Shown one piece after another: positions 1,228 through 35,551 of a stretch of 38,078 nt of DNA. A program made the position numbers and the translations under genes. Within the stretch, counting starts at the first letter, position 1, and the number at the start of each line of letters is the position of its first letter. The stretch is from Candidatus Giovannonibacteria bacterium RIFCSPHIGHO2_02_FULL_44_11 (GTDB taxonomy: Bacteria > Patescibacteriota > Minisyncoccia > UBA11713 > 2-01-FULL-45-33). The notes under the pieces were generated by a model that saw only the letters and a program-made list of their open reading frames with translations, had not been told where the DNA came from and searched no databases. The DNA lies in the NCBI GenBank assembly GCA_001778595.1, contig MFHL01000005.1:1-38078 (forward strand), in the 5' to 3' direction.

Positions 1228-2373
1228 TTACTGCTCCGGCGGGGATTTTATTATGGTAAATTGCAAAGTTCGAGGGGAGATTTTAATTATAGAAAGAGAG
1301 CCGGGAACATTGATGATATCGTTGTTGATTATATCGTATTTTTGCCTGCCATCCGCCTTGTCCGAAAGGTCAATACTGACTTTGAGGCGCTCCTCGTTTA
1401 AGAAACTGAAATCCTGATTCTGTCCCGACAGAGAAACGCTGACCTCGTTGAAATTCGCATTTTCTATTGTGTACCCGGGCAATGAACGGAATTCAATCGG
1501 TATATCATAAATCCGCGTAATAGTTCCGGCGCCAAGCTGGACAACAAACGCGTACCATAAAAATCCGGACGCGCAGAGCGCCACAGCTTTTTCCTTCCAA
1601 TTCACAAAGGGAGTCCATCTCTTGGATTCTGCGCCGTCTTCAAGCAAATGCGTCCGCAAAAAATCATGGAGCCGTGCGGTCAGCTCATCAATATCGGTTA
1701 TAATCTTTACTTCTCCGTCCTCAGCGACGGAAATCGTCCCTTTCTCCTCGGAGACTATTATAATGAAGGCGTCAGTCCGTTCGGAAAGTCCAAGAGCAGC
1801 GCGGTGGCGCGTGCCGAAATTTTTAATTCCATGATGCGCGAGCGGCAGATGTGCTCCGAACGCGCGCACGCGATCCCCTTGTATGAATACTGCGCCGTCA
1901 TGACCCGGAGACGAGGTATCAAAAATACTCAAAAGCAGGGGCACCGAAACCCTGCCTCCCAAAGCAATTCCTCCTCCGGTGACATTGTCCAGCGGCTCCT
2001 CGCCCTGAAAAACTATCAGCGCGCCGGTTTTTGACAAAGCCAGCCGTTCCACCGCGTCTATTACCTGAAGCGACACGGTCTCCGGTATCAGCTCGCGCTT
2101 TGAATAAGAAAATCTGCGCCACAGCGACAGCCATTCAAAAAACCTTCTCAACTCGCGCTGAAAAACAACTATAAAAATTATCACGAAAAAACCGAAAAAG
2201 AAGCTGAAAAGATAGCTTGTAAGATACAGGTTAAAATAGCGCGCGGCAATATATATCAAAACCAGAACGCCGATGCCGTTGAACAAAAAAAGCGAATGAG
2301 TTTTTTTCAAAAGCAAAATTACCGCGTAGATAAGCACGGCCACCACCAAAATATCCGCCATATCCCTCAACAT
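1228..2373 (-). CDS. cdaA: Diadenylate cyclase CdaA (3 N-terminal TM helices + DisA_N domain) fused to an extra TM helix and one YbbR/CdaR-like domain
   Basis: DisA_N signatures GALIVF, HDGAV (DGA) and GTRHRAALG (RHR), plus SEEKGTISV. The C-terminal ~130 aa have the YbbR-repeat pattern (IPIEFRSLPGYTI...VSVSLSG...KVSIDLSD...INVPGSLSIIKISPRTLQFTI). Confidence 0.9.
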   Translation of the reverse strand: MLRDMADILVVAVLIYAVILLLKKTHSLFLFNGIGVLVLIYIAARYFNLYLTSYLFSFFFGFFVIIFIVVFQRELRRFFEWLSLWRRFSYSKRELIPETVSLQVIDAVERLALSKTGALIVFQGEEPLDNVTGGGIALGGRVSVPLLLSIFDTSSPGHDGAVFIQGDRVRAFGAHLPLAHHGIKNFGTRHRAALGLSERTDAFIIIVSEEKGTISVAEDGEVKIITDIDELTARLHDFLRTHLLEDGAESKRWTPFVNWKEKAVALCASGFLWYAFVVQLGAGTITRIYDIPIEFRSLPGYTIENANFNEVSVSLSGQNQDFSFLNEERLKVSIDLSDKADGRQKYDIINNDIINVPGSLSIIKISPRTLQFTIIKSPPEQ

Positions 2374-7258: not shown

Positions 7259-7843
7259 TTACAATAAATCAAAATATTTAAGCAGGTTTGCCTCGTTTGT
7301 TACGCTCTCTAATATTCCGTAACGTACGTGACGCCTGATATCAAACACTTCAATGACAAAATCGATTTCATCTTTGCATTCGTATGGAAAAACAAAAACG
7401 CTTTTTTGAAGTTCGTAAAATCCGAGTTCGCGCAATTTACTCCTTAAAGCATCTCTTGCTTGGCGATTTTTCTCCGGGATATCAAACATGACAACTCGCC
7501 ACTTTTTGTCCCATCTGGGAGGCAGTTTAATTTTCAAATCGTCTATACTAAACTCCATTGCCCTTAACTTCCCTTTCTCTGTGAGCACTATCCTTGTTTG
7601 ACCATCAGAAACATCTACCATGTCGACCAACCTGTCTCTATAAAATTCTGTGATGAGCTGCCTTAAATATTCCTTGTTAATTTTGCGAAATTCTTTAGGA
7701 ATAGATGTAAAAAATCTTGATATCCCGCGTTTCGAACCCATAGCCCCTACGGCGATGCCGCCGAGAAATAAAAGCAATAATTTTTTCTTCCAAGGACTAT
7801 AAATGCGCTTTCTTTTATAGTGCGCTTTTCTAATTTTTAACAT
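7259..7843 (-). CDS. PaaX-like (Cas2-fold C-terminal domain) putative regulator with an N-terminal TM helix
   Basis: WRVVMFDIPEKNRQARDALRSKLRELGFYELQKSVFVFP matches the PaaX C-terminal pattern W..v.FsiPe..R..R..LR..L...GF..L..s.w..P. The start was moved from TTG 7861 to ATG 7843, which is preceded by aagga. Confidence 0.55.
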   Translation of the reverse strand: MLKIRKAHYKRKRIYSPWKKKLLLLFLGGIAVGAMGSKRGISRFFTSIPKEFRKINKEYLRQLITEFYRDRLVDMVDVSDGQTRIVLTEKGKLRAMEFSIDDLKIKLPPRWDKKWRVVMFDIPEKNRQARDALRSKLRELGFYELQKSVFVFPYECKDEIDFVIEVFDIRRHVRYGILESVTNEANLLKYFDLL

Positions 7844-7874
7844 AACGCCATCCTTGCACAAATAATTATTACAT

Positions 7875-10762: not shown

Positions 10763-12226
10763 CTAAATACCTGAGATTTCCAATTTATTGCTATCACCTA
10801 CGGAACAAAGCGTAGCCTTTCCATTGACAATGGTCTCCAGGCAAACGCCCCTGCCCCAAAGCTGTTTTATGTAGCCGAGTGTTTTTTCGGCGTATTCCAG
10901 CTGAAGATCACGACCGTCGTGGCTGTGCTTCAAAAACAAGATTCTGTTATTATTGTAATTTGCGTCTTCCACTTTGATTACCGGGGTTTGGCCCATGCCG
11001 ACATTTTGTACCAGGGTTTTTTTGACTTTGCGCCAGCCGTCTTCCGAAGCAACTTCGCTTACAACCATATCGTTGCCTCTGTGCTGATACTCAAAAAGAT
11101 TGAATTCTCTGACAAGTTCTTCGGTCAAAAAATTGTCCAGAAAGGACGAATCTCTTGCCCATTCCCTGACTTCAAAAATCTTCTGAAGCCCGGTTTTCTT
11201 TTTTAGGTCACCGGCACCTCCGTTGCGCTCGTACATTTCCTCGTGCTTTTCGCAAATCTTGCCGATGTAAGCCTCGTCATACCGGTGCACAATGTCGTGC
11301 CATGTGCCAAACCCCACAAAATAAGGATTCAGCCCGCCGGGCGTCGGACAAAGGACTTGAGTATGCCGGACAAGAAATTCCATATGTATGTCTTGCGGCA
11401 AATTTAACGTATTGAGAATTGTCTTGTGCCAGAAACTGGCCCAGCCTTCGTTCATGATTTTCGTGTCAATTTGCGGAATAAAATACTGGGCCTGCTCGTG
11501 CACTATCGTAAAACAATCCCGTTCCCAATCCTGCAAATCACGGTTATAGTCACGGATAAAAATCAAAAGATTTTCGGTCGGTACCAAAGGAACCCTGGTC
11601 AGATCCGGAGCAATATACTCCTGTCTTCTATGGGCATTCTGAAAACTGTCTTCTCTGGGCAAAGCATTGTCCAATGCCCTCTGCTCCTGTTCTTTTCGCG
11701 ACATCTCTTTTATTGCGAGGTTCCGCCTGCATTGCAAGGAAACGGCGTGAGCCGCGTCCAGTACCGCTTCAACCTTATCAAGACCGATGCTGGAGTCCGC
11801 GATATAACTTCGGATACGGTTCGCATGGCTTTTGAACCTTTCGATGGTCATATTTGCATGGGTAGTTGCTAATGTATCATTATTCCTGAAAAAATCATTG
11901 TGCGCGTACACATGGGCCATCGTAAGAATCTGCAAAGCCAGACTATTTTCACGCATGAGATATGCCAAACACGGGTCTGAGTTAATTACCATCTCGTAAG
12001 GCAGACCGCTCAAACCGTAGTCGTAAAGGGTCTTGAGCTTCTCAAATCCCTTGCCGTATGACCAATGAGGATAATGCGAAGGCATGCCGGAGTAGGTCAT
12101 ATAAGAGAGCATTTCTTCGGAATCGCAGATTTCAAACTCCTGCTTAAACGTTTTGAGTCCGTAATTTCTTGCAAGCCGTTCAATCGGCACGTTCCATTTT
12201 TTGATTTCTTCCAAATTTACGTCCAT
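10763..12226 (-). CDS. spoVR: SpoVR/YcgB family protein
   Basis: Typical N-terminus and length (487 aa), with conserved blocks (AHVYAHNDFF, MNEGWASFWH). SD aaggag 5 nt upstream. Third gene of the prkA operon. Confidence 0.88.
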   Translation of the reverse strand: MDVNLEEIKKWNVPIERLARNYGLKTFKQEFEICDSEEMLSYMTYSGMPSHYPHWSYGKGFEKLKTLYDYGLSGLPYEMVINSDPCLAYLMRENSLALQILTMAHVYAHNDFFRNNDTLATTHANMTIERFKSHANRIRSYIADSSIGLDKVEAVLDAAHAVSLQCRRNLAIKEMSRKEQEQRALDNALPREDSFQNAHRRQEYIAPDLTRVPLVPTENLLIFIRDYNRDLQDWERDCFTIVHEQAQYFIPQIDTKIMNEGWASFWHKTILNTLNLPQDIHMEFLVRHTQVLCPTPGGLNPYFVGFGTWHDIVHRYDEAYIGKICEKHEEMYERNGGAGDLKKKTGLQKIFEVREWARDSSFLDNFLTEELVREFNLFEYQHRGNDMVVSEVASEDGWRKVKKTLVQNVGMGQTPVIKVEDANYNNNRILFLKHSHDGRDLQLEYAEKTLGYIKQLWGRGVCLETIVNGKATLCSVGDSNKLEISGI

Positions 12227-12230
12227 AGTG

Positions 12231-13541
12231 TTACTCCTTTATCTTGTCTTTCTCAAGAAAACTTTTGAAAGCCGACCAGACATCCTCTTTTCTCTGTATC
12301 TGGATCGTCTGAAAATTTGGTCTGTCCACCTGAGATAAATATTGGATCATGCTTCCGCCGTAATATCCCGCACCCAGGGGTTTGATCTCTCCGTAACCGA
12401 AAAGGTTGGAAGCGTCGGCAAGTTCCTGCGCTGCTTTTAGCGCGGCAGGATTGTCGGATTCAAAATTGTCCCCGTCCGAACAATGGAACGCATAAACATT
12501 CCAAAGGGAAAGCGGGAATTTCTCGCGAATTACTTCCAGCGCCTTATTGTATCCGGAAGAAATAAATGTTCCGCCGGACTCGCCCTTGTGAAAAAATTCC
12601 TCTTCCGTGACAACGCGCGCTTCGGTGTGATGCGCGATAAACACGATTCTCACATTCTCGTAGCGCGTGCACAAAAAACGGTAAAGAAGAAAGAAAAAAC
12701 TGCGCGCAAGATACTTTTTCATCGTGTCCATTGAACCCGACGTATCCATGATACAGAGCACCACGGCATTGGAGTCCTTGCGGACTTCCAAAACGGTGCG
12801 CCCAAAGCGCTTATTCCGGTTCCTCATCGGAATCCAATTTTTGCGCCTTTCTATCGCGCTTCCTTTACTGCTAAGCTTTGCCCTCAGCAAATCCTGCTCC
12901 GTCTGCCACGCACGCAAATTGTCCTCAAGCACCTTGGCCTCTGCTGTTCTGCCTGCGGCTTGAAGTTTTTTGATTTCTTCTTTTACCGCATCCGTTGATC
13001 TGGCGTTTCCCTGCATATCTTTAATGTGCTCTATCTGCGTTCTCTTTCTGTTCAAACGCGCCTGAATACCTTTTTTCTTGAACCCTTTTTGTTTGAATTT
13101 TTTTTCAACTTCCATCTCGCGGAATTTTTTTCTTTCCATGAACGGAAGCTCCAGATCCTCAAACATGATCTCAATCAGCTCATCAAGGTTTATTTCGGTC
13201 TCATAGTAATCAACTCCGGGCTGGTCGCCGGCTTGCTGTCCCTGTGCTCCCTTTTTGCCTTGTCCGATGGTCTGTCCCGGCTGAACATCTCCATCCCCGC
13301 CCTGACCTACGCCGGGAGCGTTTTCCCCATAAACAAAACGGTATTCTTTTACTCCGCGGATAGGAACTTTGATAACGCGTCCTTTGTCTTTGCCGATGAT
13401 AGACTCTTCGGCAATAATATTGCCGATATCCCCTCGGATAGCATCACGCACTTTTTGCCTGTGCCTCAGCCTGTCGCCGGCGGTTCTGTCGCTATGCCTC
13501 GCCCCGCCGGTTCCTTCTTTCGGATCATTGAAAATTGCCAT
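12231..13541 (-). CDS. yeaH: YeaH/YhbH family protein (DUF444, vWA-like)
   Basis: N-terminal R/D-rich DUF444 pattern, Gly/Gln-rich linker, C-terminal vWA-like block (CIMDTSGSM). The start was set to ATG 13541 (the track's TTG is one codon upstream), preceded by aaggag. Confidence 0.88.
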   Translation of the reverse strand: MAIFNDPKEGTGGARHSDRTAGDRLRHRQKVRDAIRGDIGNIIAEESIIGKDKGRVIKVPIRGVKEYRFVYGENAPGVGQGGDGDVQPGQTIGQGKKGAQGQQAGDQPGVDYYETEINLDELIEIMFEDLELPFMERKKFREMEVEKKFKQKGFKKKGIQARLNRKRTQIEHIKDMQGNARSTDAVKEEIKKLQAAGRTAEAKVLEDNLRAWQTEQDLLRAKLSSKGSAIERRKNWIPMRNRNKRFGRTVLEVRKDSNAVVLCIMDTSGSMDTMKKYLARSFFFLLYRFLCTRYENVRIVFIAHHTEARVVTEEEFFHKGESGGTFISSGYNKALEVIREKFPLSLWNVYAFHCSDGDNFESDNPAALKAAQELADASNLFGYGEIKPLGAGYYGGSMIQYLSQVDRPNFQTIQIQRKEDVWSAFKSFLEKDKIKE

Positions 13542-13632
13542 CAAAATCTCCTTTTTTCAAATATCTTCCTGACTCAAGTCGTAACATAAAAAAATCCCCG
13601 AGGCAAGCCCGGGGCAACATCGATAATAACTA

Positions 13633-15609
13633 TTAGTCTTTCCAGAGGTTGTTTGCGGCGTACTTGAGAATCACGTCCACACAGCTCTCGCAATACTCGC
13701 ATTTATCCAACAGCTGCTGGACCATCATATCATATTTTTCTCCCTGTTCCTTGTCGCGTAAGCGCGACTTGGTAATCACCCGGCTCAAATCGCGTACCGA
13801 AGCGATGAGCTTTTTCTCAATCGCCTCCTTGAGCGGTTCGTAGCTACGGAAGTCAATCTTCTCACCCCGGCGGTTTGCCGCCCAGAGATAAGCAATCACC
13901 TCCTGACGGAACCCGTCGGCAGCCGAGCCGATGATGGCGATTTGCTCCTCGATAGATTTCATTAACTCTTCGTCGGGCGCCAATTCTTCTTTGGTGTTGT
14001 GGTCCTTCACCTTGCTCTTGTTGACATAGGCTTCTGCGTGATCAAGATAATTCTGGAAAAGCGACTCGGCCTGCTCTTGGTAAGAGTGGACGAAAGCCCT
14101 TGTTACTTCCTTGTCCAGAATAGCGAGGTACTCCTTGTGCAGCGTATCCTGCAGAAATTCCAATCTTTGCTTTTTGACATCCTCACTGGCCTTATCATCT
14201 TCCTTAACCATGTTGATCAGCGCTTCCCGCACATTAATCGGATTCACGCATTTCCCGCTTGCGTTGTCGGAAAGGGCGTTGTCCAGCGCTTTCATAATGA
14301 AACGCGTTGAGATACCGTCCATGCCCTCACGCTTTGCGGCCTCGCGCAATTCCTGAATGTCAACTTTTTTCGTGCGTCCCTTTTCAATGACTTCATCGCC
14401 GTTGTAGAGTTTCAGTTTGGTCATGAGGTCGCACTTATTGGTCGGCTCAAGACGCGACAGAATCGCGAACATTGAAGCGATTTCCAGCGTATGCGGCGCC
14501 ACGTGTGCGCGGAAGTCCGTCTCGCGGATGATTTTTTGATAAATCTTGATCTCTTCGGAGAGACGCAGATTGTAAGGCACTCTCACCACCACGATGCGGT
14601 CCAAGATCGCCTCGTTGGTATGGTCGCCTTTGAATTTCTGCCACTCGGCTTCGTTGGAATGGGCTACGATTACCGTGTCAACATAAACCAATCCGTGCCG
14701 GCCCGGCGCAGGAACGACTTTTTCCTGTGTCGCCGTAATCATCGCGTGCAGGTATTCGATCTCGTTCTTAAAAACCTCGATGAATTCCACAACTCCGCGG
14801 TTTCCGATATTGAGCGCGCCGTTGAGCTCCAAAACTCTCGGATCGCCTTCGGAATAAAGATCCAGCTTGGAAATATCCTCAGAACCAATCAGTACGGAAG
14901 TGTCCTGATTGTTTGGATCCACGGGCGGAACGACGCCGATGCCGACTCGCGCACGTTTGGAAAATTCGTATGTCCGCACGGGCATATTTTCCCATTTCCC
15001 GCCGAAATCTTCTTTCAGTCTGTAGCGGCATACGGGGCAGATATCCCATTCCTGCTTAAAAAACTTTGCCGGAAGTCCGAGCATCGTGAATATTTCTTCC
15101 CGCAAATGCTTGGGAACCAGAAGCAGCGGCTCATTGAACATTGGACAGCCGTCCATCGCATAGAACGGCTCGCTGGATTCCAAGCCTCTGTGTAAATGCT
15201 CGGCAAGCGAGCTTTTTCCGGAACCGACCGGCCCCATCAGGTACAACACCTGCCTGGATTCTTCGCCTCTTTGGGCAGCCGAGTAAAAATACCGCGCAAT
15301 CTGCGCGACTGTCTTCTCGATGCCGAAAAAATCATTGGAAAAAAAATCATAAACCTTTAACGGCTCGCCCTTAAAAAGTCTTTTGATCCTGTTATCCTCG
15401 ATTTCCGTAATTGGTTTCTCGCCGGCTCTTACAATGATGTCGTTTAGGCGGGCGTGGGCCAATTTAGCAACCAATGGGTCTGCCTTAACCTTTTCCATAT
15501 ACTGCAGTACGGTTCCGCTCCAGGAACGATCCAGCTTGTCTTTCCGGTCTGATTGAATCTTGCCTTGAACAAATTCTTGAAATTCGCTTCTCTCTGTTTC
15601 TTCTCCCAT
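13633..15609 (-). CDS. prkA: PrkA-family serine protein kinase / AAA+ protein
   Basis: Walker A LMGPVGSGKSS. 658 aa with the PrkA layout. SD aaggagg upstream. Followed by yeaH and spoVR. Confidence 0.92.
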   Translation of the reverse strand: MGEETERSEFQEFVQGKIQSDRKDKLDRSWSGTVLQYMEKVKADPLVAKLAHARLNDIIVRAGEKPITEIEDNRIKRLFKGEPLKVYDFFSNDFFGIEKTVAQIARYFYSAAQRGEESRQVLYLMGPVGSGKSSLAEHLHRGLESSEPFYAMDGCPMFNEPLLLVPKHLREEIFTMLGLPAKFFKQEWDICPVCRYRLKEDFGGKWENMPVRTYEFSKRARVGIGVVPPVDPNNQDTSVLIGSEDISKLDLYSEGDPRVLELNGALNIGNRGVVEFIEVFKNEIEYLHAMITATQEKVVPAPGRHGLVYVDTVIVAHSNEAEWQKFKGDHTNEAILDRIVVVRVPYNLRLSEEIKIYQKIIRETDFRAHVAPHTLEIASMFAILSRLEPTNKCDLMTKLKLYNGDEVIEKGRTKKVDIQELREAAKREGMDGISTRFIMKALDNALSDNASGKCVNPINVREALINMVKEDDKASEDVKKQRLEFLQDTLHKEYLAILDKEVTRAFVHSYQEQAESLFQNYLDHAEAYVNKSKVKDHNTKEELAPDEELMKSIEEQIAIIGSAADGFRQEVIAYLWAANRRGEKIDFRSYEPLKEAIEKKLIASVRDLSRVITKSRLRDKEQGEKYDMMVQQLLDKCEYCESCVDVILKYAANNLWKD

Positions 15610-15718: not shown

Positions 15719-15790
15719 GCGAGCGTAGCTCAACGGCAGAGCATCGAGCTTATACCTCGAGGGTTGAGGGTTCGAATCCTTCCGCTCGCA
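15719..15790 (+). tRNA. tRNA-Ile (anticodon UAU), no encoded CCA
   Basis: Cloverleaf: acceptor gcgagcg/cgctcgc, D-stem gctc/gagc, anticodon stem tcgag/ctcga with loop ctTATac, T-arm gaggg/ttcgaat/ccttc, discriminator A. Confidence 0.85.
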
Positions 15791-15886
15791 CAAAAATTTC
15801 AGCTTACTCATCCATGATATTTGTTTGACAAATTTCAAGCAATTTGTTATCATGTAAAAAGTTACGAATTTACTAGGAGGTGTTAT

Positions 15887-28044: not shown

Positions 28045-28713
28045 TCAATGAGGCGTAAGCAGAAACCTATAAGGTTTCTTTGCCCACGCTCCCGCGTAGT
28101 CCACACCTATCCTAGGCGCGGCTTTTATCTTTGAAGATTTTATTTTAATTCCTCGGTCTTCTATCCATAATTTGTTTTTTTTAGACGCCGTCTGACCGTT
28201 GAATTTTTTATCTATTTTTAAAGATTTTGTAAGCTTAGCAGGACCATCAAGGCTTCTCGGCGCAACATTTTTCAAGACACGGATATTTTCCTGCTGAAAA
28301 ATTCCTCGTGCTTGCGCCGTCGCGCTCGCAAGGTCTTGAAAAATATTCGCCTTCAAAGCCTTAAATTTAAGGTTTTGCTGCGGCAAAAAATCGGAAACAC
28401 CTCTTATCAATACCGCCGCGGGATAATCTTTGGGGCCGGTCACAATATTCAGCATCCAGTGCATGCCGTAAGTAAAATAAACATACCACCGACCCGCTTC
28501 TCCGAACATCGGCTCATTGCGGAGCGTTCTTCCGCGCGAAGCGTGCGACGCTTTGTCTTTTGGTCCATCATAAGCCTCGACTTCGGTTATCATAAAACAC
28601 TTAGACGTCCGACGTCTAAGTGAGCTAGATACACATAAATATTTACCCAAAAGCTCCGGCGCAACCTTCAGCGCGCTCCTTTCAAAAAATTTTTTGGTCA
28701 GAACCTTTTTCAC
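28045..28713 (-). CDS. DNA-3-methyladenine glycosylase, Mpg/AAG family
   Basis: Blocks LLGKYL, ITEVEAYDG, SHASRGRT, YVYFTYGMHWMLNIV and AVLIRG. The GTG start overlaps the HAD gene stop (GTGA). Confidence 0.82.
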   Translation of the reverse strand: MKKVLTKKFFERSALKVAPELLGKYLCVSSSLRRRTSKCFMITEVEAYDGPKDKASHASRGRTLRNEPMFGEAGRWYVYFTYGMHWMLNIVTGPKDYPAAVLIRGVSDFLPQQNLKFKALKANIFQDLASATAQARGIFQQENIRVLKNVAPRSLDGPAKLTKSLKIDKKFNGQTASKKNKLWIEDRGIKIKSSKIKAAPRIGVDYAGAWAKKPYRFLLTPH

Positions 28714-29315
28714 CCCAAAAAATATTTAGCAAGCTCTTCGTGCGAAGCAATTTTAATGTAATTGTCCGATGCCGGGAATACGTTCAAATGGTCAAATAAA
28801 AATTTGTTCGGCACGTCCGCAAGAACGGATAAAATTTTCGTTTCATCGTCCACATAATGAGTAACTCCCAATTCTTTCGCCTTAATATTTTTCTCTATAG
28901 GCTCAACAACAAAAAAAGCGTTTGACTCATTGAAATATTTCGGCCAGATACCTCTTTTCTTCAGCAAATCTATCGCTATAGACGGCTCGAGTCTCCTTGA
29001 AATAAGGAGGTACGGTATTTTTGCCGAATTAATATCGTCCAAAAGCTTTACGATTCCGGGCATAAGCGGAGCCTCTATGGAAATCATGGGATTACAGTAG
29101 ATAGCGAGCTGAAGCCTGCGCAACAAATCAGAAGGAACTATTTTTTTTATTATTTCCGCGGGCGTTTGCATAGGCGACAAATTAATTCCGAGACTTTTGG
29201 CGACTCTCAATTTCAGTTCAGCATTATCAATCACAACTCCGTCCATGTCAAACCCCAAAATTTTTTTACCCCGACCAAGATCGCGGGCGTTGTCCACATG
29301 ACTTTTCATCTGCAT
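28710..29315 (-). CDS. HAD-superfamily hydrolase (nucleotidase/phosphatase-like)
   Basis: Motif I FDMDGVVID. C-terminal YVDDE acidic motif. Translationally coupled to the glycosylase gene. Confidence 0.7.
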   Translation of the reverse strand: MQMKSHVDNARDLGRGKKILGFDMDGVVIDNAELKLRVAKSLGINLSPMQTPAEIIKKIVPSDLLRRLQLAIYCNPMISIEAPLMPGIVKLLDDINSAKIPYLLISRRLEPSIAIDLLKKRGIWPKYFNESNAFFVVEPIEKNIKAKELGVTHYVDDETKILSVLADVPNKFLFDHLNVFPASDNYIKIASHEELAKYFLG

Positions 29316-29360: not shown

Positions 29361-30056
29361 ATGCAAACACCGGAATGGGAAATTGGCAAGGAAGAATTTT
29401 TAAAAAGACTCGGACTCTCCGGCGGCGATCTTGTAAGACGGATGAATCTTCCAGACCTGGACACGGCTGAACACATTATTCCTTTAAGATACATGAAAAA
29501 TGTCGGCGAACTATCTCCGATAAGCTGGGATCTTGCGAAATATCTCATGTCCAAAATGCGGACGATGAACGGACACTATCCTTTCAGCGAAGCGCAGATA
29601 AGCCTGCGGAAATTTGACCCGAACGGCCTTAAAGTAGGCCAGAAATTCGCGTACGAGGAAAATTTGTCTGGCGTCTTAAAAGAACTGCCTTCGTTCTTCA
29701 GAAATTACATGATACCGAGCGGGATAAGCGAACTCGGAGCATGGTTCGTTTTCGGGCGTGACCTGGAAGATGTCCCCGCTTTTTCGTGTTATCTGCCTCC
29801 GATAGTGGAAAGGCACGGCAAAAATTTCGTTATCATGGACGGCATACACCGGAATTATATCGCCAAACAAGTCGGCGTATCGCTCAACGCGATATTGGCG
29901 GAAAATATCTCCGTACCTTTTCCCTGCGGAATGAAAAACTGGGAAGAACTTTCCGTGATTTCGCTAAAAGATAAACCCGCCGACATCAACGAGAGGTATT
30001 TCACTCTGACCAAAGAACTTTTCCGCGACCTCAAATATCTCGGAATAGACGGATGA
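29361..30056 (+). CDS. ParB/sulfiredoxin-fold (DGxHR motif) domain protein, function unknown
   Basis: ISLRKFDPNGLKVGQ followed by FVIMDGIHRNYIA (DGIHR at nt 29838-29852), the two signature blocks of ParB-N/Srx/DGQHR-type domains. 231 aa. Confidence 0.5.
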   Translation: MQTPEWEIGKEEFLKRLGLSGGDLVRRMNLPDLDTAEHIIPLRYMKNVGELSPISWDLAKYLMSKMRTMNGHYPFSEAQISLRKFDPNGLKVGQKFAYEENLSGVLKELPSFFRNYMIPSGISELGAWFVFGRDLEDVPAFSCYLPPIVERHGKNFVIMDGIHRNYIAKQVGVSLNAILAENISVPFPCGMKNWEELSVISLKDKPADINERYFTLTKELFRDLKYLGIDG

Positions 30057-30064
30057 GGTGAAAT

Positions 30065-30781
30065 ATGAACAAAGAAAAGATGTTTGAACAAAAAGCGCAG
30101 GAAATACTCAAATATCTCAAAAGCAATATTCGCTACGGCAATTATATTCCGAGGCCGTTCTTTCTGGAGTTTACCGGCTCTCCTTCGGCGGGGAAATCGA
30201 CCACTATCACCGAACTGGATAAATTTCTGCGCCGCGAAGGTTTCAGAGTCCTGCCTCCGCAAGAAGGCGCCGAGCAGGTACGGCATATTGAGAGAGATAC
30301 TCCTCTCTACAACATCGCAACCTGCGACTATGCCCGGAAGATCCTTATTGATGAAAGCCACGGCCACAAATACGATGTCGTCATCTTCGATCGCGGTATT
30401 TTCGACGGATATTGCTGGATGGAATATTGGCAAGAAAAAAACAAGCTCACCGTTCAGGACAAAGAAATATATCAAAAGTTTTTTCTTTCCGAGTTCTGGG
30501 TAAACAATATTGATGCCGCCTATTTCATGGTCTGCGACCCGAAAATCGCAATAGAACGCGAACAGCGCATCGCGCTTACCAAAAAACTCGGTGAGACGAC
30601 CAATCCTAAAAACGTAGAAATTTTGGTAAACCGGTACAAAAAAGCTTATGATGTCTTGTCACCCACCCACAAACAGCTCCGCCTGCTGGATACGACCAAA
30701 ATGGAAGAGAAAAAAATGGTTGAAATGATAGCCGAGCAAGTATTGAACGTCCTTCAGGAAAAAGCAAAAAGCGGCCGCTAA
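30065..30781 (+). CDS. P-loop nucleoside/nucleotide-kinase-like protein (dNK/TMPK fold)
   Basis: Walker A GSPSAGKST, downstream VVIFDRGIFDG (DR motif), LID-like EREQRIALTKK. SD gaggtg. 8 nt after the ParB-like gene. Confidence 0.6.
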   Translation: MNKEKMFEQKAQEILKYLKSNIRYGNYIPRPFFLEFTGSPSAGKSTTITELDKFLRREGFRVLPPQEGAEQVRHIERDTPLYNIATCDYARKILIDESHGHKYDVVIFDRGIFDGYCWMEYWQEKNKLTVQDKEIYQKFFLSEFWVNNIDAAYFMVCDPKIAIEREQRIALTKKLGETTNPKNVEILVNRYKKAYDVLSPTHKQLRLLDTTKMEEKKMVEMIAEQVLNVLQEKAKSGR

Positions 30782-31377
30782 GGCCGTTTTTTATTTTTCT
30801 CTTCAAACCGCCTTATCTCGCCATCCAATAAAAATGCCGCGGAATTTACCAATGAGACAAGCTCCTCGGCTGTTTTTTTGAATTTTTTAAATTTTGTTTT
30901 GGTAACAGCTAAACGCATCGGAGTAACAATGGGCAAAAAATACGAATGCGTCCATTTTAGGCCCAGAATATGCAGGTTATAAACAACGCTGATGTGGTTG
31001 TCATAAAGATCGGAAAGCTTTACAAGCCTTACCGCCTCTTCAGAACCCGCAACCTGTTTAACATAAGGCATCACATTCTTGTCCCCCCATTTATTAGTCA
31101 TGCTTTTAATAATTTCTGATCCTCGAGGCCCAAAAACCGCCATAACTTCTTTTTCAGTGACTTTTGTGTCTTCCAAAACATCGTGCCCCAAAGCCGCAGT
31201 GACAATTATGGACCTTTCTTGTCCTCCGCATTCCCCGTGTTTTTCCAATACAAAACTCAAAAGACCGGAAACTCTGGCCAAATGATGCCAGGCGGGCACA
31301 TTTCCTGCTCTTACCTGACCTTTGTGCTTTTCTTTTACAAATTCGAGCGCATCTTTAAAAAATTTATCTCGGTCCAT
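30778..31377 (-). CDS. HD-domain hydrolase of the RelA/SpoT (small alarmone hydrolase, Mesh1-like) type
   Basis: HKGQVRAGNVPAWHHLARV, AALGHDVLEDT and VKLSDLYDNH match the SpoT hydrolase blocks (H..., HD..ED, K.aDrl.N). 199 aa, with no synthetase domain. Confidence 0.75.
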   Translation of the reverse strand: MDRDKFFKDALEFVKEKHKGQVRAGNVPAWHHLARVSGLLSFVLEKHGECGGQERSIIVTAALGHDVLEDTKVTEKEVMAVFGPRGSEIIKSMTNKWGDKNVMPYVKQVAGSEEAVRLVKLSDLYDNHISVVYNLHILGLKWTHSYFLPIVTPMRLAVTKTKFKKFKKTAEELVSLVNSAAFLLDGEIRRFEEKNKKRP

Positions 31378-31423
31378 AATTTTAAGTATAACAAAAAGCG
31401 GGACCTATGTCCCACTTATTTTT

Positions 31424-32161
31424 TTACTTTCCCGACAAACAACATTCATAATACTTCGTATGCTCCGTTAAGTCATGGATGGCTGCGTAGTGTTCGCTCC
31501 TTTCGCCGAAGACCGGAAAAACAAAATCCGGAGAGAGCAGCGAAAGCCACATCACGGCTGCAGTGGCGCTTCTTCCGCATCCGTCCGCCCACGGATGTAT
31601 CTCGCCGTCTATCATATGGTCGGCATAAGCCAAAAGCTCCGCCTGGGAAATTTGCTTATTTACGGCAAGTTCTATTTTTGAAACAAGCTCCCCGTAAAAA
31701 AAGTCCATTGCTGATTCCAACTGTAAAGGGTCCAGATTAGCTTTAGTGTAGGATACCCTCCACGTCCGGTAACGCTTGTTTACCCGGTAATTAAATCCTG
31801 CGGTCTTTTTAAGTTCCTTGGCCGAAGCGCAAAGTTTAAGATAATCATCCAGATAAGCGCCTTCTTCCTGCAGACCGGAATTGATGACCGAATCCCAGCT
31901 CTCCATCAAAGCTCTTATCGTGACGCTTTTTAGAAAAGGCTGCTTAATGGAAGAATAAAATATTGAGTCAATTGCGACGGATTTAACCAAGCATTCAGTG
32001 TTTTCGGCAACCTGCTCTTTTAAAGCAGTTTTTTCTTTTAAGAGTTTTTTCTTTTTGGAACTCGTGCTTGTATCAGACACACCTTTTGCCGTACGGCTTC
32101 TTTTTTCGATATTTTCTTTGAAAACCGCGGCGAAATCATCACAGCTCAGGCCGTTTATCAT
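31424..32161 (-). CDS. Fic/Fido-domain protein with a divergent active-site motif
   Basis: HPWADGCGRSAT at nt 31571-31597, compared with the canonical HPFx(D/E)GNGRxxR. The start ATG overlaps the stop of the upstream kinase-like gene (ATGA). Confidence 0.7.
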   Translation of the reverse strand: MINGLSCDDFAAVFKENIEKRSRTAKGVSDTSTSSKKKKLLKEKTALKEQVAENTECLVKSVAIDSIFYSSIKQPFLKSVTIRALMESWDSVINSGLQEEGAYLDDYLKLCASAKELKKTAGFNYRVNKRYRTWRVSYTKANLDPLQLESAMDFFYGELVSKIELAVNKQISQAELLAYADHMIDGEIHPWADGCGRSATAAVMWLSLLSPDFVFPVFGERSEHYAAIHDLTEHTKYYECCLSGK

Positions 32162-32832
32162 ATCTTTATCCCCTTTCTTTTCATAGTAGTTATCATTTTA
32201 TCCGCCGCCTTTGCAATCTTCCTCGCAACCGCGTCTTTATCATCAGTGAATTTGCCGCCGTTGCGGACGATAACAACATTCATCTTGCCGTCAAAAACTT
32301 CAGGCAGTTTCAAAAATAATTCTCTTATTTTTACCCTATTGCCGCGTCCCCCGGACATTTTTCCGCCAAGCCCTTTGTCTGCCTGTTTGCGCAGCGACTC
32401 CCTTTCCATCGCCGTATCCACATCACAATCGGTTATGACCGCGATGTCAGGAACGCGCAAACCCATGTGATTTATGAAAAGGTCCCAAATCTGGTACTGG
32501 TCTAGATCCCCGGGAGAGGCTCTATATGCCAAAGAACTCACAAATGACCTGTCCCGCAGGACAAAATCGTTCAAGCACAACGCTTCGTCCACAACCTGCT
32601 CGGTCATCCTGAAACCTGCAACGAACAGCGGGAATACAAAAGCACTTTTTACTATATCATTCTTCCCGCACCACGGCAGCATCAAAGCGCCGTGGTCTCT
32701 CAAAGGCGCTATTTCATTGTCCCGTAAAATTTTGACTTTTTTCCCGAGGCCGGTCAAATAATTTTCGAATTCTTTAATTACAGTGCCTTTTCCCGTACCG
32801 CTTCCTCCGTCGAAAGTTATATAGTATCCCAC
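32158..32832 (-). CDS. Thymidylate-kinase-family P-loop kinase (divergent)
   Basis: ITFDGGSGTGKGT P-loop at the extreme N-terminus, LRDRSFVSSLAYRA (the TMPK DRY..S..AY block), and a Gly/Arg-rich LID (GGKMSGGRGNR). GTG start without an obvious SD. Confidence 0.6.
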   Translation of the reverse strand: MGYYITFDGGSGTGKGTVIKEFENYLTGLGKKVKILRDNEIAPLRDHGALMLPWCGKNDIVKSAFVFPLFVAGFRMTEQVVDEALCLNDFVLRDRSFVSSLAYRASPGDLDQYQIWDLFINHMGLRVPDIAVITDCDVDTAMERESLRKQADKGLGGKMSGGRGNRVKIRELFLKLPEVFDGKMNVVIVRNGGKFTDDKDAVARKIAKAADKMITTMKRKGIKI

Positions 32833-34301: not shown

Positions 34302-34341
34302 CCGTCCACGACGTTTACGTCGGGACGGGATTATTTTTTTT
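34302..34341. terminator. Rho-independent terminator between convergent genes
   Basis: ccgtcc ... ggacgg stem with an inner acgacg/cgtcg pairing, followed by a T-run that also encodes the terminal Lys codons of the minus-strand gene. Confidence 0.6.
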
Positions 34342-35551
34342 GGCATTTTGGACAAAATGGCAACAACGGAAGTTCTTTGTATCTTTCCGCTTTCAAATCG
34401 CCCCAACCGGAAACTGAATTCTGTAATCTGCCGCAATGGTAACATTGACCAATGAAACTGGCGTTCAATTCTTGCAGTCTCAAACTTTCAAGTTCTAATG
34501 ACGGATTAAGTAACATCAGAATGACGGCCATACGGACGAATTTGCCGTTTCTTATCTGCTTCCAATACCAGGCCCTGTCATCGTCATCCAGACTTAAATC
34601 TCCGGCAGTATTTCTTGAAGGCAATTCATTGCCCCGTTCAAAACGCGGAAAAGCATGCATTACGCCGGCATAACCGAATTCGTCCGCCGTCCGCCTAGTT
34701 ATGGAGCAACTTTGGCCTGACCTTAAAATTTCTTCGGTTCGCTCTTTGCCAAGCCAATCTTCCGGAATCCTGGATATACTCGCCACACTTGCAGGCTGAA
34801 GATTGTAATGGATTGAAAACCTTACTCCGGCCGACTTTAATTCGTTTTGGAGAAGTTCGTCCGGTTCAAGCCCCGGCACACAGCAATATTTCAACTCCAT
34901 TCCCAGTGCCTTGCCCATCAAAAGCGAGTCAGATCTCACAACCCTGTTCCTGCAGTCATTTATGAAAGCCACGGAATATTGAGGTAGTCTTTTCCAGTCT
35001 TTTTCGATGTCAATTCCGAACCCTCCGAAAAAGGTATAAATGTTTGTTGCGGCCTGAGTCGGATGTTCGCCCTCGCCTTTTTCTCCGTCGGCGGAATTGA
35101 TTACGTGGCCGTTATATCCGCGCCTGTCAATTTCCCTGGCAATTTCTTCAGCCATGCCGACTTTGTGCGCGCGAATATTAATCAGATCAAAATACGCGGC
35201 GTACGTCATCATCTCATCCAAAAAAGCGGCGCCCTTGGAGTACAACGAAGTATAAGCAAGCTTGTATTCGCCGTCTACTTTGGTTCCAAGAATATTTTCC
35301 ACGAACATGCCGAGGCTCGCGGCGGCAGAGCTGCTGGAACTGCGCGTACGCGTAGAATCCTGAAAAAAAACATTGACCATTTGCTTCCCTGCGCAGGCGC
35401 GGAGAAGAAGTTCAGGGCCTTTAGGCTTCCTGATAAAATTCTTAATCTCAAGAGTTTTCCTCATCAGATTAATTAAACTGCTCACGGAGAAATCTCTTAC
35501 CGAAAGAAAATGATTGAGTTTTCCTAGCGCACGGTCCGGATTTGTTTCCAT
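34331..35551 (-). CDS. Aspartate/ornithine carbamoyltransferase-family protein (ATCase-like) with a fused C-terminal CxxC...CxxC zinc ribbon
   Basis: STRTR (nt 35342-35356), EHPTQ, MHAFPR (HPxP-type) and a RNGKFVRMAVI tail align with PyrB blocks. The last ~39 aa (CYHC...CPKC) resemble the PyrI zinc domain. SD gaggggg. Confidence 0.7.
   Translation of the reverse strand: METNPDRALGKLNHFLSVRDFSVSSLINLMRKTLEIKNFIRKPKGPELLLRACAGKQMVNVFFQDSTRTRSSSSSAAASLGMFVENILGTKVDGEYKLAYTSLYSKGAAFLDEMMTYAAYFDLINIRAHKVGMAEEIAREIDRRGYNGHVINSADGEKGEGEHPTQAATNIYTFFGGFGIDIEKDWKRLPQYSVAFINDCRNRVVRSDSLLMGKALGMELKYCCVPGLEPDELLQNELKSAGVRFSIHYNLQPASVASISRIPEDWLGKERTEEILRSGQSCSITRRTADEFGYAGVMHAFPRFERGNELPSRNTAGDLSLDDDDRAWYWKQIRNGKFVRMAVILMLLNPSLELESLRLQELNASFIGQCYHCGRLQNSVSGWGDLKAERYKELPLLPFCPKCQKK

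Follow-up and report, generated by a model that had tools for sequence, protein, structure and literature searches.

A conserved, undescribed cluster of known folds that pairs a divergent Fic-fold protein with a SpoT/Mesh1-type hydrolase in Candidatus Giovannonibacteria

Why should genes for a ParB/Srx-like protein, two kinases, a Fic protein and a SpoT-type hydrolase lie side by side in the genome of a tiny groundwater bacterium? The genes in question occupy positions 29361 to 32832 of the window, the 38,078-nucleotide stretch of contig MFHL01000005.1 from Candidatus Giovannonibacteria bacterium RIFCSPHIGHO2_02_FULL_44_11 that was analysed here. The first-pass annotation of this DNA had proposed that they are functionally linked, possibly as a toxin-antitoxin, abortive-infection or nucleotide second-messenger module. 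They belong to a real, conserved and undescribed cluster of known folds, the role of which is most likely metabolic or regulatory, not defensive. The proteins are named as follows:

A, 29361-30056, plus strand: 231 amino acids (aa), probable ParB/Srx-fold protein
B, 30065-30781, plus strand: 238 aa, predicted P-loop kinase of the dNK/TMPK fold (AAA_28)
C, 30778-31377, minus strand: 199 aa, predicted stand-alone RelA/SpoT-type HD hydrolase (Mesh1/SAH-like)
D, 31424-32161, minus strand: 245 aa, divergent Fic/Doc-fold (Fido) protein
E, 32158-32832, minus strand: 224 aa, thymidylate-kinase-family paralogue
H, 28710-29315, minus strand: HAD-superfamily phosphatase, NT5C-like (5'(3')-deoxyribonucleotidase-like), divergent from A

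Related loci were gathered via exact-protein look-ups and pattern scans, and the families were mapped by phmmer and jackhmmer. C is encoded directly downstream of D in about 20 of the 25 distinct loci that extend far enough beyond D. The pattern fails in the five most divergent relatives, and four of these (L027, L028, L032 and L033) have a high guanine-cytosine (GC) content of 0.59-0.66. The adjacency of D and C is held across proteins that are 32-65% identical and across loci with a GC content of 0.36-0.56. Furthermore, the pairwise identities of D and C co-vary (r = 0.68, 136 locus pairs). Judged from these gene neighbourhoods, the D-C pair is the invariant core of the cluster, a point missed by the first-pass annotation. 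At least one of A, B, E and H stands beside D-C in 17 of the 20 D-C loci, in varying order and orientation, as the following examples illustrate:

L020: gene order same as in the window
L021: A< B> D> C>
L031: B< H< A> D> C>
L011: A> D> C>
L009: AAA_18< B< D> C> A> TMPK> ThyX>
L001: AAA_18< B< E> D> C> TMPK> ThyX>
L022: B< D> C> ... TMPK> ThyX>
L013 and L015: D> C> A>

Genes for TMPK and ThyX follow downstream of D-C in L001, L009 and L022, and lie nearby in L013 and L015. D also occurs in fusions with kinase domains. P0165 is an intact fusion of E with D (phmmer E 2e-67 to E, motifs intact), a guanylate-kinase-like domain is fused to D in P0180, and another P-loop domain in P0199. Together with the D-C adjacency and the company of A, B, E or H, these fusions bear out the functional link that had been proposed. 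The clustering is not due to chance, since the same families recur jointly in more than 20 independent loci. The catalytic residues are conserved across the families of the cluster proteins.

The triad of H, A and B, in which H is divergent from A, is conserved without D-C in L017-L019. Most loci lack E, and some lack A or B. The family sizes are nested, with at least 175 homologues of A, 30 of D and 13 of E in one database. The linkage of D and C, their shuffled neighbours, the separate H/A/B triad and the nested sizes point to two modules, a widespread H/A/B core and an accessory arm of D-C with or without a kinase.

Several related loci show peculiarities of their own. In L008 (4382-5097), the closest relative in the genome collection, D is split over two frames and E is missing, with CAP, C, B and A intact. 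The split reflects either an assembly error or decay of D. The missing E indicates that E is dispensable. L012 contains B< D> C> on a 347-kb contig labelled 'uncultured Gammaproteobacteria' with a GC content of 0.48, which is either a mislabelled bin or a rare case outside Patescibacteria. The ThyX proteins of L001 (8567-10264) and L009 (11106-12845) are unusually long, with 565-579 aa compared with 261 aa in L022, and may be tandem-duplicated or fused.

The layout of the window cluster is compact. Its open reading frames (ORFs), spacers and overlaps had been given exactly in the first-pass annotation, as confirmed by the ORF table and by inspection of the junctions in the sequence. The stop of E and the start of D form an ATGA overlap within AAGATATGATAAAC, by which E is predicted to be translationally coupled to D. 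The spacer between D and C measures 46 nucleotides (nt), that between A and B 8 nt, with GAGGTG present at the junction. The stop codons of B and C share 4 nt (30778-30781), located inside a hairpin with T-runs on both strands, which looks like a bidirectional terminator. The GC content is uniform over the cluster region. Three further features adjoin the genes:

30766-30792: hairpin over the B and C stop codons, T-runs on both sides, bidirectional-terminator-like
31396-31417, minus strand: hairpin in the D-C spacer, GC-rich with a T-run, intrinsic-terminator-like
28045-28713, minus strand: Mpg 3-methyladenine glycosylase gene, its start overlapped by 4 nt by the stop of H

What kind of protein is D? 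Searches of Pfam (E <= 0.1) and NCBIfam with D gave no match. In the NCBI collection, a protein named for Candidatus Giovannonibacteria (RIFCSPLOWO2_01_FULL...) is 100% identical to D. The AF2 model of D, built from a 29-sequence alignment, has a pLDDT of 94 and displays an all-alpha Fic core with the catalytic loop at the junction of two core helices. Its top 21 Foldseek matches in the PDB are all Fic proteins, including IbpA Fic2, BT_2513 and FICD, with a probability of 1.0 for the best matches, a TM of about 0.5 and E-values from 4e-3. A profile search of 1.84 billion representatives returned 379 relatives of D, 62 of them at E <= 1e-30. Distant relatives pass Pfam Fic (PF02661, cutoff 24), namely P0224 with 28.5 bits, P0258 with 29.9 bits and P0255 with 24.3 bits. 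The link of D to Pfam Fic thus appears only transitive, via relatives found by the profile.

In the catalytic loop of D, IHPWADGCGRSAT, the canonical Asn is replaced by Cys and the second Arg by Thr. The family consensus IHPWxDGCGRxxT differs accordingly from the canonical HxFx(D/E)GNGRxxR, the H, D, G, G and R residues being kept. In the wider family the loop reads IHP(W/F)xDG(C/V)GRxx(T/K), as some relatives have V in place of the motif N and the last R is replaced by K. A second signature is the invariant N-terminal arm N-x3-RSRTAKGxSDTSxS-KKK-L, which becomes N-x3-(R)SRTxxGxSDTSxS-x2-K-x2-L in the wider family. The subfamily of D itself combines the exchange of the second motif Arg for Thr with the gain of an extra Arg in the arm (RSR). 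An RYRxW segment represents the third signature. The inhibitory helix of Fic proteins, searched with the regular expression (S/T)xxxE(G/N), is not conserved in the 29 D homologues and was not found in A, B, C, E or H. As D has a Fic fold but fails both the canonical motif and the Pfam threshold, it is assigned to a new Fido-fold subfamily and not to the canonical Fic AMPylases. The original call of a Fic protein with a non-canonical active site is thereby upheld, and the fold assignments of all five proteins likewise hold under profile and structure tests.

Among the wider relatives of D, the domain is found within large multidomain proteins, where it is joined by Zeta-toxin kinases, pyridine-nucleotide oxidoreductases (Pyr_redox_2) or Csx3. 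Given this company, D-type activity may also serve conflict systems elsewhere. Distant DGCGR Fic-like domains are found in P0238, P0239, P0248, P0255, P0273 and P0285, which are proteins of 740-1280 aa. In several of the distant D-like multidomain proteins, the linkers contain HPRDxxGRF-like motifs that recall polyvalent proteins of phages or conjugative elements. Among the kinase-D fusions, P0190 and P0199 no longer have the catalytic His in their Fic loops (IRPW and LRPW), and in P0190 most of the N-terminal arm is gone as well. To judge by these losses, both may be inactive, regulatory derivatives. A fold search of BFVD with D gave nothing significant.

The constant partner of D belongs to a better-known family. 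The family profile of C matches Drosophila and human Mesh1 in the PDB, best at E 4e-16 (3nqw), followed by Lmo0812, SpoT, the small alarmone hydrolase SAH and a (p)ppApp hydrolase. C itself matches Pfam HD_4 at E 2e-5 with 24.8 bits, slightly under the cutoff of 27.2, and the N-terminal part of TIGR00691 at E 1.6e-8. The orthologue in L020 is listed with an unmarked HD_4. Residues H18, R23, H32, H65-D66, E69-D70, D123 and N127, which cover the H, HD, ED and N motifs, are invariant in the family. From its domain content, C is classed as a single-domain SAH/Mesh1-family hydrolase that has no synthetase domain.

The hairpin between D and C is not a peculiarity of the window. Equivalents were found in 13 of 18 distinct loci with a strict detector and in 16 of 18 by reading of the RNAfold output (window, L001, L003, L005, L007, L008, L011-L015, L020-L022, L024 and L035). 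A comparable hairpin occurs in 20 of 75 other co-directional gaps of the same loci (Fisher p = 6e-4). Its position is conserved and its stem sequence is not. In the window, a TATACT box precedes the ATG of C by about 7 nt, and a TAnnnT box is similarly placed in the closer relatives. The presence of this -10-like box points to a C mRNA with its own promoter and no leader, or to an attenuator. Given the conserved hairpin, D and C may be transcriptionally insulated or linked by attenuation despite their constant adjacency.

Both kinases and the phosphatase have recognisable relatives. B passes Pfam AAA_28 with 36.2 bits (cutoff 27) and matches a PHROG annotated as 'thymidylate kinase'. The B family profile matches Drosophila dNK (E 3.6e-5, residues 31-180) and also TMPKs. 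These matches identify B as a predicted P-loop kinase with a dNK/TMPK-type core. In L003, B is fused with a CYTH (triphosphate-tunnel) domain. The slot of B after A is occupied in L017 (6711-7394) by a 227-aa protein matching Pfam 'AEP-like' (PF24387), and in L018 a NUDIX gene is inserted between A and B.

E passes Pfam Thymidylate_kin (PF02223) with 44.9 bits (cutoff 27), and its family profile matches exclusively TMPKs in the PDB, the best at E 7.5e-13. The Walker A motif FDGGSGTGKGT and an RDRSF motif are invariant in the family, and the lid GLGGKMSG is unusual. Of the 13 homologues found, the sole source name displayed is 'hypothetical protein', and several are encoded on the same contigs as D homologues. 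The possibility that E is the housekeeping, orthologous tmk was rejected, since E is rare, scores 49.3 bits against the cutoff of 83.25 of the Tmk equivalog model TIGR00041, and in L001 shares its locus with a separate 274-aa TMPK beside ThyX. A second tmk was not found in a search limited to the window.

H orthologues stand divergently beside A in L017, L018 and L019 (phmmer E 1e-35 to 1e-56), those of L017 and L019 having weak or faint precomputed NT5C matches. H also adjoins D-C in L007, L011, L020, L031 and L038. Its family profile matches the putative 5'(3')-deoxyribonucleotidase 3bwv over the full length (E 7e-4). The HAD gene had been described as a nucleotide enzyme that is merely adjacent. 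Its nature as a nucleotide enzyme is supported, but it is not a mere neighbour, as it recurs with A and with D-C across loci. In the close relative L020, the HAD gene, an MGMT-like gene and Mpg are kept together. This grouping and the overlap of the H stop with the Mpg start link the cluster to base-damage repair.

The assignment of A requires more caution. The sole Pfam match of the window protein is Parb-CE, below threshold (E 0.019). Parb-CE is matched by 21 of 43 members of the A family, with a best E of 7.8e-7. No match was obtained in PDB sequence searches with either the single sequence or the family profile. The AF2 model has a pLDDT of 88, and its top 17 Foldseek matches comprise ParB-CDP (6sdk), Noc, ParB-CTPgS, Atu1540 and sulfiredoxin. 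The probability reaches 0.97, yet the E-value is just 0.035 with about 105 residues aligned. The core, at approximately residues 70-180, superposes on the ParB-CDP, Noc, Atu1540 and Srx domains. The Parb-CE matches across the family and the structural matches of the model give moderate support for a ParB/Srx fold with a nucleotide-binding motif resembling box I and box II. Invariant motifs of the family are GQKFxYREN, YxPPIVExH, IMDGIHRN and PFPC, together with the C-terminus LFRDLKYLGIDG, which includes GIDG. Every named homologue of A is from Patescibacteria. A ParB/KorB-type DNA-binding regulator was considered and is thought unlikely, as no helix-turn-helix (HTH) follows the ParB/Srx domain of A and many of its polar residues are invariant.

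Does the cluster serve defence? PADLOC gave nothing significant for the window proteins, the sub-threshold matches being D to PDC-S04 (E 0.0067) and E to PDC-M51B (E 0.0015). No relatives of D were found in IMG/VR among 2.9 million viral contigs, and PHROGs confirmed just the kinase and phosphohydrolase families. Integrase or transposase genes were not detected among the annotated ORFs of the window. Related loci are flanked by SecE-NusG-L11, GyrB, DnaE, RecA, FtsK and NusA. Recurring neighbours are TMPK, ThyX, extra AAA_18 kinases, NUDIX, Ham1, NTPase_I-T, Mpg, Fpg, MGMT, DnaE and CYTH. Synteny is stable within lineages, namely in the window, L008 and L020, and in L001, L009 and L022. The housekeeping flanks, the missing mobile genes, the null PADLOC and viral searches and the stable synteny argue against a toxin-antitoxin or defence reading. 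In addition, a terminator-like hairpin kept between D and C is atypical for a co-transcribed toxin-antitoxin pair. According to Pfam, a RelA_SpoT synthetase domain is present neither in the window cluster nor in the annotated neighbour lists of related loci. A toxSAS-SAH module was therefore rejected. Toxicity aside, the assignment as a type II toxin-antitoxin or defence system is not supported by the gene content and layout. The toxin-antitoxin, abortive-infection or defence-island reading of the first-pass annotation consequently finds no support in these searches, in the flat GC content or in D, where the Fic inhibitory motif was not found. The fallback given there, a nucleotide-salvage neighbourhood in a reduced genome, is a better fit to the gene context, and its second-messenger idea may still apply.

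The preferred reading, held tentatively and given slightly less than an even chance, is that of a chromosomal, vertically inherited, Patescibacteria-centred cluster for nucleotide phosphate metabolism or its regulation, tied to the supply of deoxynucleoside triphosphate (dNTP) precursors. It builds on the observed folds, intact catalytic motifs, D-C linkage, kinase-D fusions and housekeeping context. The tie to dNTP precursors is drawn from the thymidylate kinase and ThyX encoded alongside in several lineages. The first module, widespread in Parcubacteria, consists of the NT5C-like HAD phosphatase divergent beside A and the dNK-fold kinase B, and can be read as a putative phosphorylation and dephosphorylation set for (deoxy)nucleosides and nucleotides. 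The second would be accessory in a subset of those lineages and combine a protein of the nucleoside monophosphate (NMP) kinase fold with the Fic-fold transferase D and the hydrolase C. Its kinase slot would be filled by E in the window; in other loci or proteins it would be filled by B, a guanylate-kinase-like domain or a different P-loop domain. The kinase would supply or recycle a nucleoside mono- or diphosphate. D, with its His-Asp-Gly-Cys-Gly-Arg loop and basic RSR arm, would add a phosphoryl-containing group (phosphate, pyrophosphate or NMP) to that nucleotide or take one from it, and C would strip a ribose-linked (pyro)phosphate. Together, the three proteins might set the level of a phosphorylated nucleotide that feeds or tunes the supply of dNTP precursors. 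The interchangeable NMP-kinase-fold partners of D indicate a nucleotide substrate. With swapped kinases on one side and a hydrolase for ribose-linked (pyro)phosphates on the other, a phosphorylated nucleotide is the simplest common denominator. The altered Fic loop and the invariant basic arm would suit a different nucleotide-binding register.

Several points weigh against this reading. To our knowledge, all characterised Fic/Doc enzymes modify proteins, and D would be without precedent in acting on a nucleotide. NADPH is among the substrates of Mesh1-type enzymes, and the substrate of C may be a different one from that proposed. The terminator-like hairpin means that D and C may not be co-expressed, and the Zeta-toxin and Csx3 company of distant D relatives hints at conflict functions in the wider family. 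The role of A is left unexplained by every reading considered here.

The simplest rival would be coincidence, with unrelated nucleotide enzymes packed together by genome compaction. Patescibacterial genomes are dense, and the patchy occurrence of E, A and B would be in keeping with such packing. It is scarcely credible any longer and largely refuted already, because D-C adjacency persists at 32-65% protein identity and at GC contents of 0.36-0.56, the families stay together though their order is reshuffled, and kinase-D fusions exist. A toxin-antitoxin, abortive-infection or defence system, with D as a Fic toxin, C (or E or B) as the antidote and A as a DndB-like sensor, must be called highly improbable. 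In its favour, toxins are frequent among Fic/Doc proteins, and the antitoxin role in toxSAS is played by SAHs; fusions with Zeta-toxin kinases, and one with a Csx3 ring-nuclease domain, are seen in the wider relatives of D, and there are the weak PADLOC matches of D to PDC-S04 and of E to PDC-M51B. None of these matches is significant, however, and the 2.9 million viral contigs contain no relatives. The flanks consist of ribosomal, replication and repair genes, synteny is conserved in three lineages, the GC content is uniform, and no integrase or transposase was detected among the annotated ORFs of the window. Within the putative toxin-antitoxin pair, D precedes C, a conserved terminator separates the two, and neither a RelA/SpoT homologue (RSH) toxin nor the Fic inhibitory motif was found. 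In L008 D is split over two frames, yet C, B and A are intact.

Two other rivals keep D and C as partners and differ in what D would modify. In a protein-level switch, D would AMPylate or phosphorylate a partner protein, most simply the adjacent or fused kinase (E, B or TMPK), and C or the HAD phosphatase would reverse the modification. Every characterised Fic/Doc enzyme that we know of targets proteins, the Fic loop of D still has its catalytic His, Asp and Arg, and kinase-D fusions are equally expected of a cis-regulatory pair of enzyme and target. In addition, an HD domain in GlnD is reported to take UMP off the PII protein. The switch is nevertheless considered unlikely. The full SpoT/Mesh1 motif set of C suits ribose-3'(2')-(pyro)phosphate esters, not protein-AMP phosphodiesters, and the partner varies among unrelated NMP-kinase families (TMPK-like, guanylate-kinase-like and AAA_28), for which small-molecule chemistry is an easier fit. 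A conserved inhibitory helix motif was not found either. The remaining rival is a non-RSH alarmone system. On the model of AnkX and its attack on the beta-phosphate of CDP-choline, D might act as a pyrophosphokinase that attacks the beta-phosphate of ATP and yields a 3'-pyrophosphorylated nucleotide; the kinase would supply nucleoside diphosphate or recycle NMP, and C would be the hydrolase. D is obligately paired with a genuine SAH/Mesh1-type hydrolase, its NMP-kinase fusions include a guanylate-kinase-like one, and the lost second motif Arg and the gained basic N-terminal arm are as expected for a changed nucleotide-binding register. The Pfam lists show an RSH synthetase domain in none of the loci, although one could sit elsewhere in these genomes. 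This reading is purely inferential, as no Fic enzyme with such activity is known; the neighbours concern deoxynucleotide and thymidylate metabolism, not translation or the stringent response, and the terminator between D and C is left unexplained. It is judged rather improbable. The same low standing is given to the proposal that D founds a Fic-fold family acting on nucleotides, in which a non-RSH pyrophosphokinase or phosphotransferase and its NMP-kinase partner would make a 3'-(pyro)phosphorylated (deoxy)nucleotide that is degraded by C.

The remainder of the window includes genes for CdaA, RecG, a PrkA-DUF444-SpoVR triad, FtsH, an RNase J-like protein, HtrA, thioredoxin and ATCase. The CdaA-type diadenylate cyclase (1228-2373, minus strand; DAC and CdaA_N) indicates that the host has at least one classical nucleotide second-messenger system. 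The PrkA, DUF444 and SpoVR triad (10763-15609, minus strand) is complete, in a Patescibacteria genome; this three-gene set has been connected with the response to stress or starvation. It is followed by a gene for tRNA-Ile (15719-15791, plus strand), the anticodon of which, TAT, is believed to be uncommon among bacteria. A 406-aa protein of the aspartate/ornithine carbamoyltransferase family (34331-35551, minus strand) carries a Cys-rich C-terminal tail, CYHCG...CPKC, and its gene also occurs near the L020 cluster. Finally, a 200-aa protein (7259-7861, minus strand) contains a PaaX central/Cas2-like domain; a CRISPR context was not seen in the window.

A literature search turned up no account of the D family, the D-C pair, the H/A/B triad or the whole cluster, in line with the earlier failure to match it to a described system. 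Even on a conservative reading, this leaves an undescribed Fic-like family of about 380 representative clusters with three signature motifs, absent from Pfam-A and NCBIfam as searched, and defines a Parcubacteria-wide triad of HAD, ParB/Srx and dNK proteins. Genome-reduced symbionts are thought to be unable to make nucleotides de novo, and the D family and the triad bear on the handling of DNA precursors in such organisms. The repeated fusion of D to interchangeable NMP kinases provides a directly testable biochemical hypothesis. Should D and C make and break a phosphorylated nucleotide, D would be the first Fic-fold enzyme with a small-molecule substrate, and stand-alone SpoT/Mesh1-type hydrolases that have no RSH synthetase nearby would gain a function. 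If D were to act as the non-RSH enzyme that makes a 3'-(pyro)phosphorylated (deoxy)nucleotide for C to degrade, the result would be an alarmone-like circuit that operates without a RelA/SpoT synthetase and is wired to dNTP supply in ultrasmall bacteria.

How does the cluster compare with known systems? D shares the fold, the position of the catalytic loop and the H, D, G, G and R residues with Fic/Doc enzymes such as FicT/FicA, Doc/Phd and AnkX/Lem3. The pairing of a transferase D with a hydrolase C resembles the logic of the writer-eraser pair AnkX/Lem3. D differs from the known enzymes in its motif IHPWxDGCGRxxT, the extra RSRTAKGxSDTSxS arm and the RYRxW segment, and it has neither the inhibitory helix motif nor a direct match in Pfam or NCBIfam. 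It is accompanied by NMP-kinase-fold proteins and a SpoT-type hydrolase, in a chromosomal, housekeeping context. C corresponds to SAH/Mesh1 proteins, including the SAH antitoxins of toxSAS, in being a single domain of about 200 aa with invariant H, HD, ED and N motifs. In contrast to those, its steady partner is a Fic-fold protein instead of an RSH synthetase, and its context consists of dNTP-precursor genes. The PPIVE...IMDGIHRN pair of A is comparable to ParB boxes I and II of the ParB/Srx-fold NTP users, which include the ParB/Noc CTPases, sulfiredoxin, SerK/SbnI and DndB/Atu1540-type proteins. Unlike these, A lacks an HTH, a dimerisation domain and a Pfam ParBc match, has its own invariant motifs (GQKFxYREN, PFPC and the C-terminal GIDG), and is encoded alongside a dNK-like kinase and a HAD phosphatase. 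The closest metabolic parallels are the substrate cycles of dNK/TK2 and NT5C/NT5M and the operons of thymidylate kinase and ThyX. B is dNK-like and H is NT5C-like, and E as well as a second TMPK with ThyX recur nearby, although E scores below the Tmk equivalog cutoff. To the textbook dNK/NT5C cycle, the cluster adds ParB/Srx-fold, Fic-fold and SpoT-type proteins, all of which are foreign to it.

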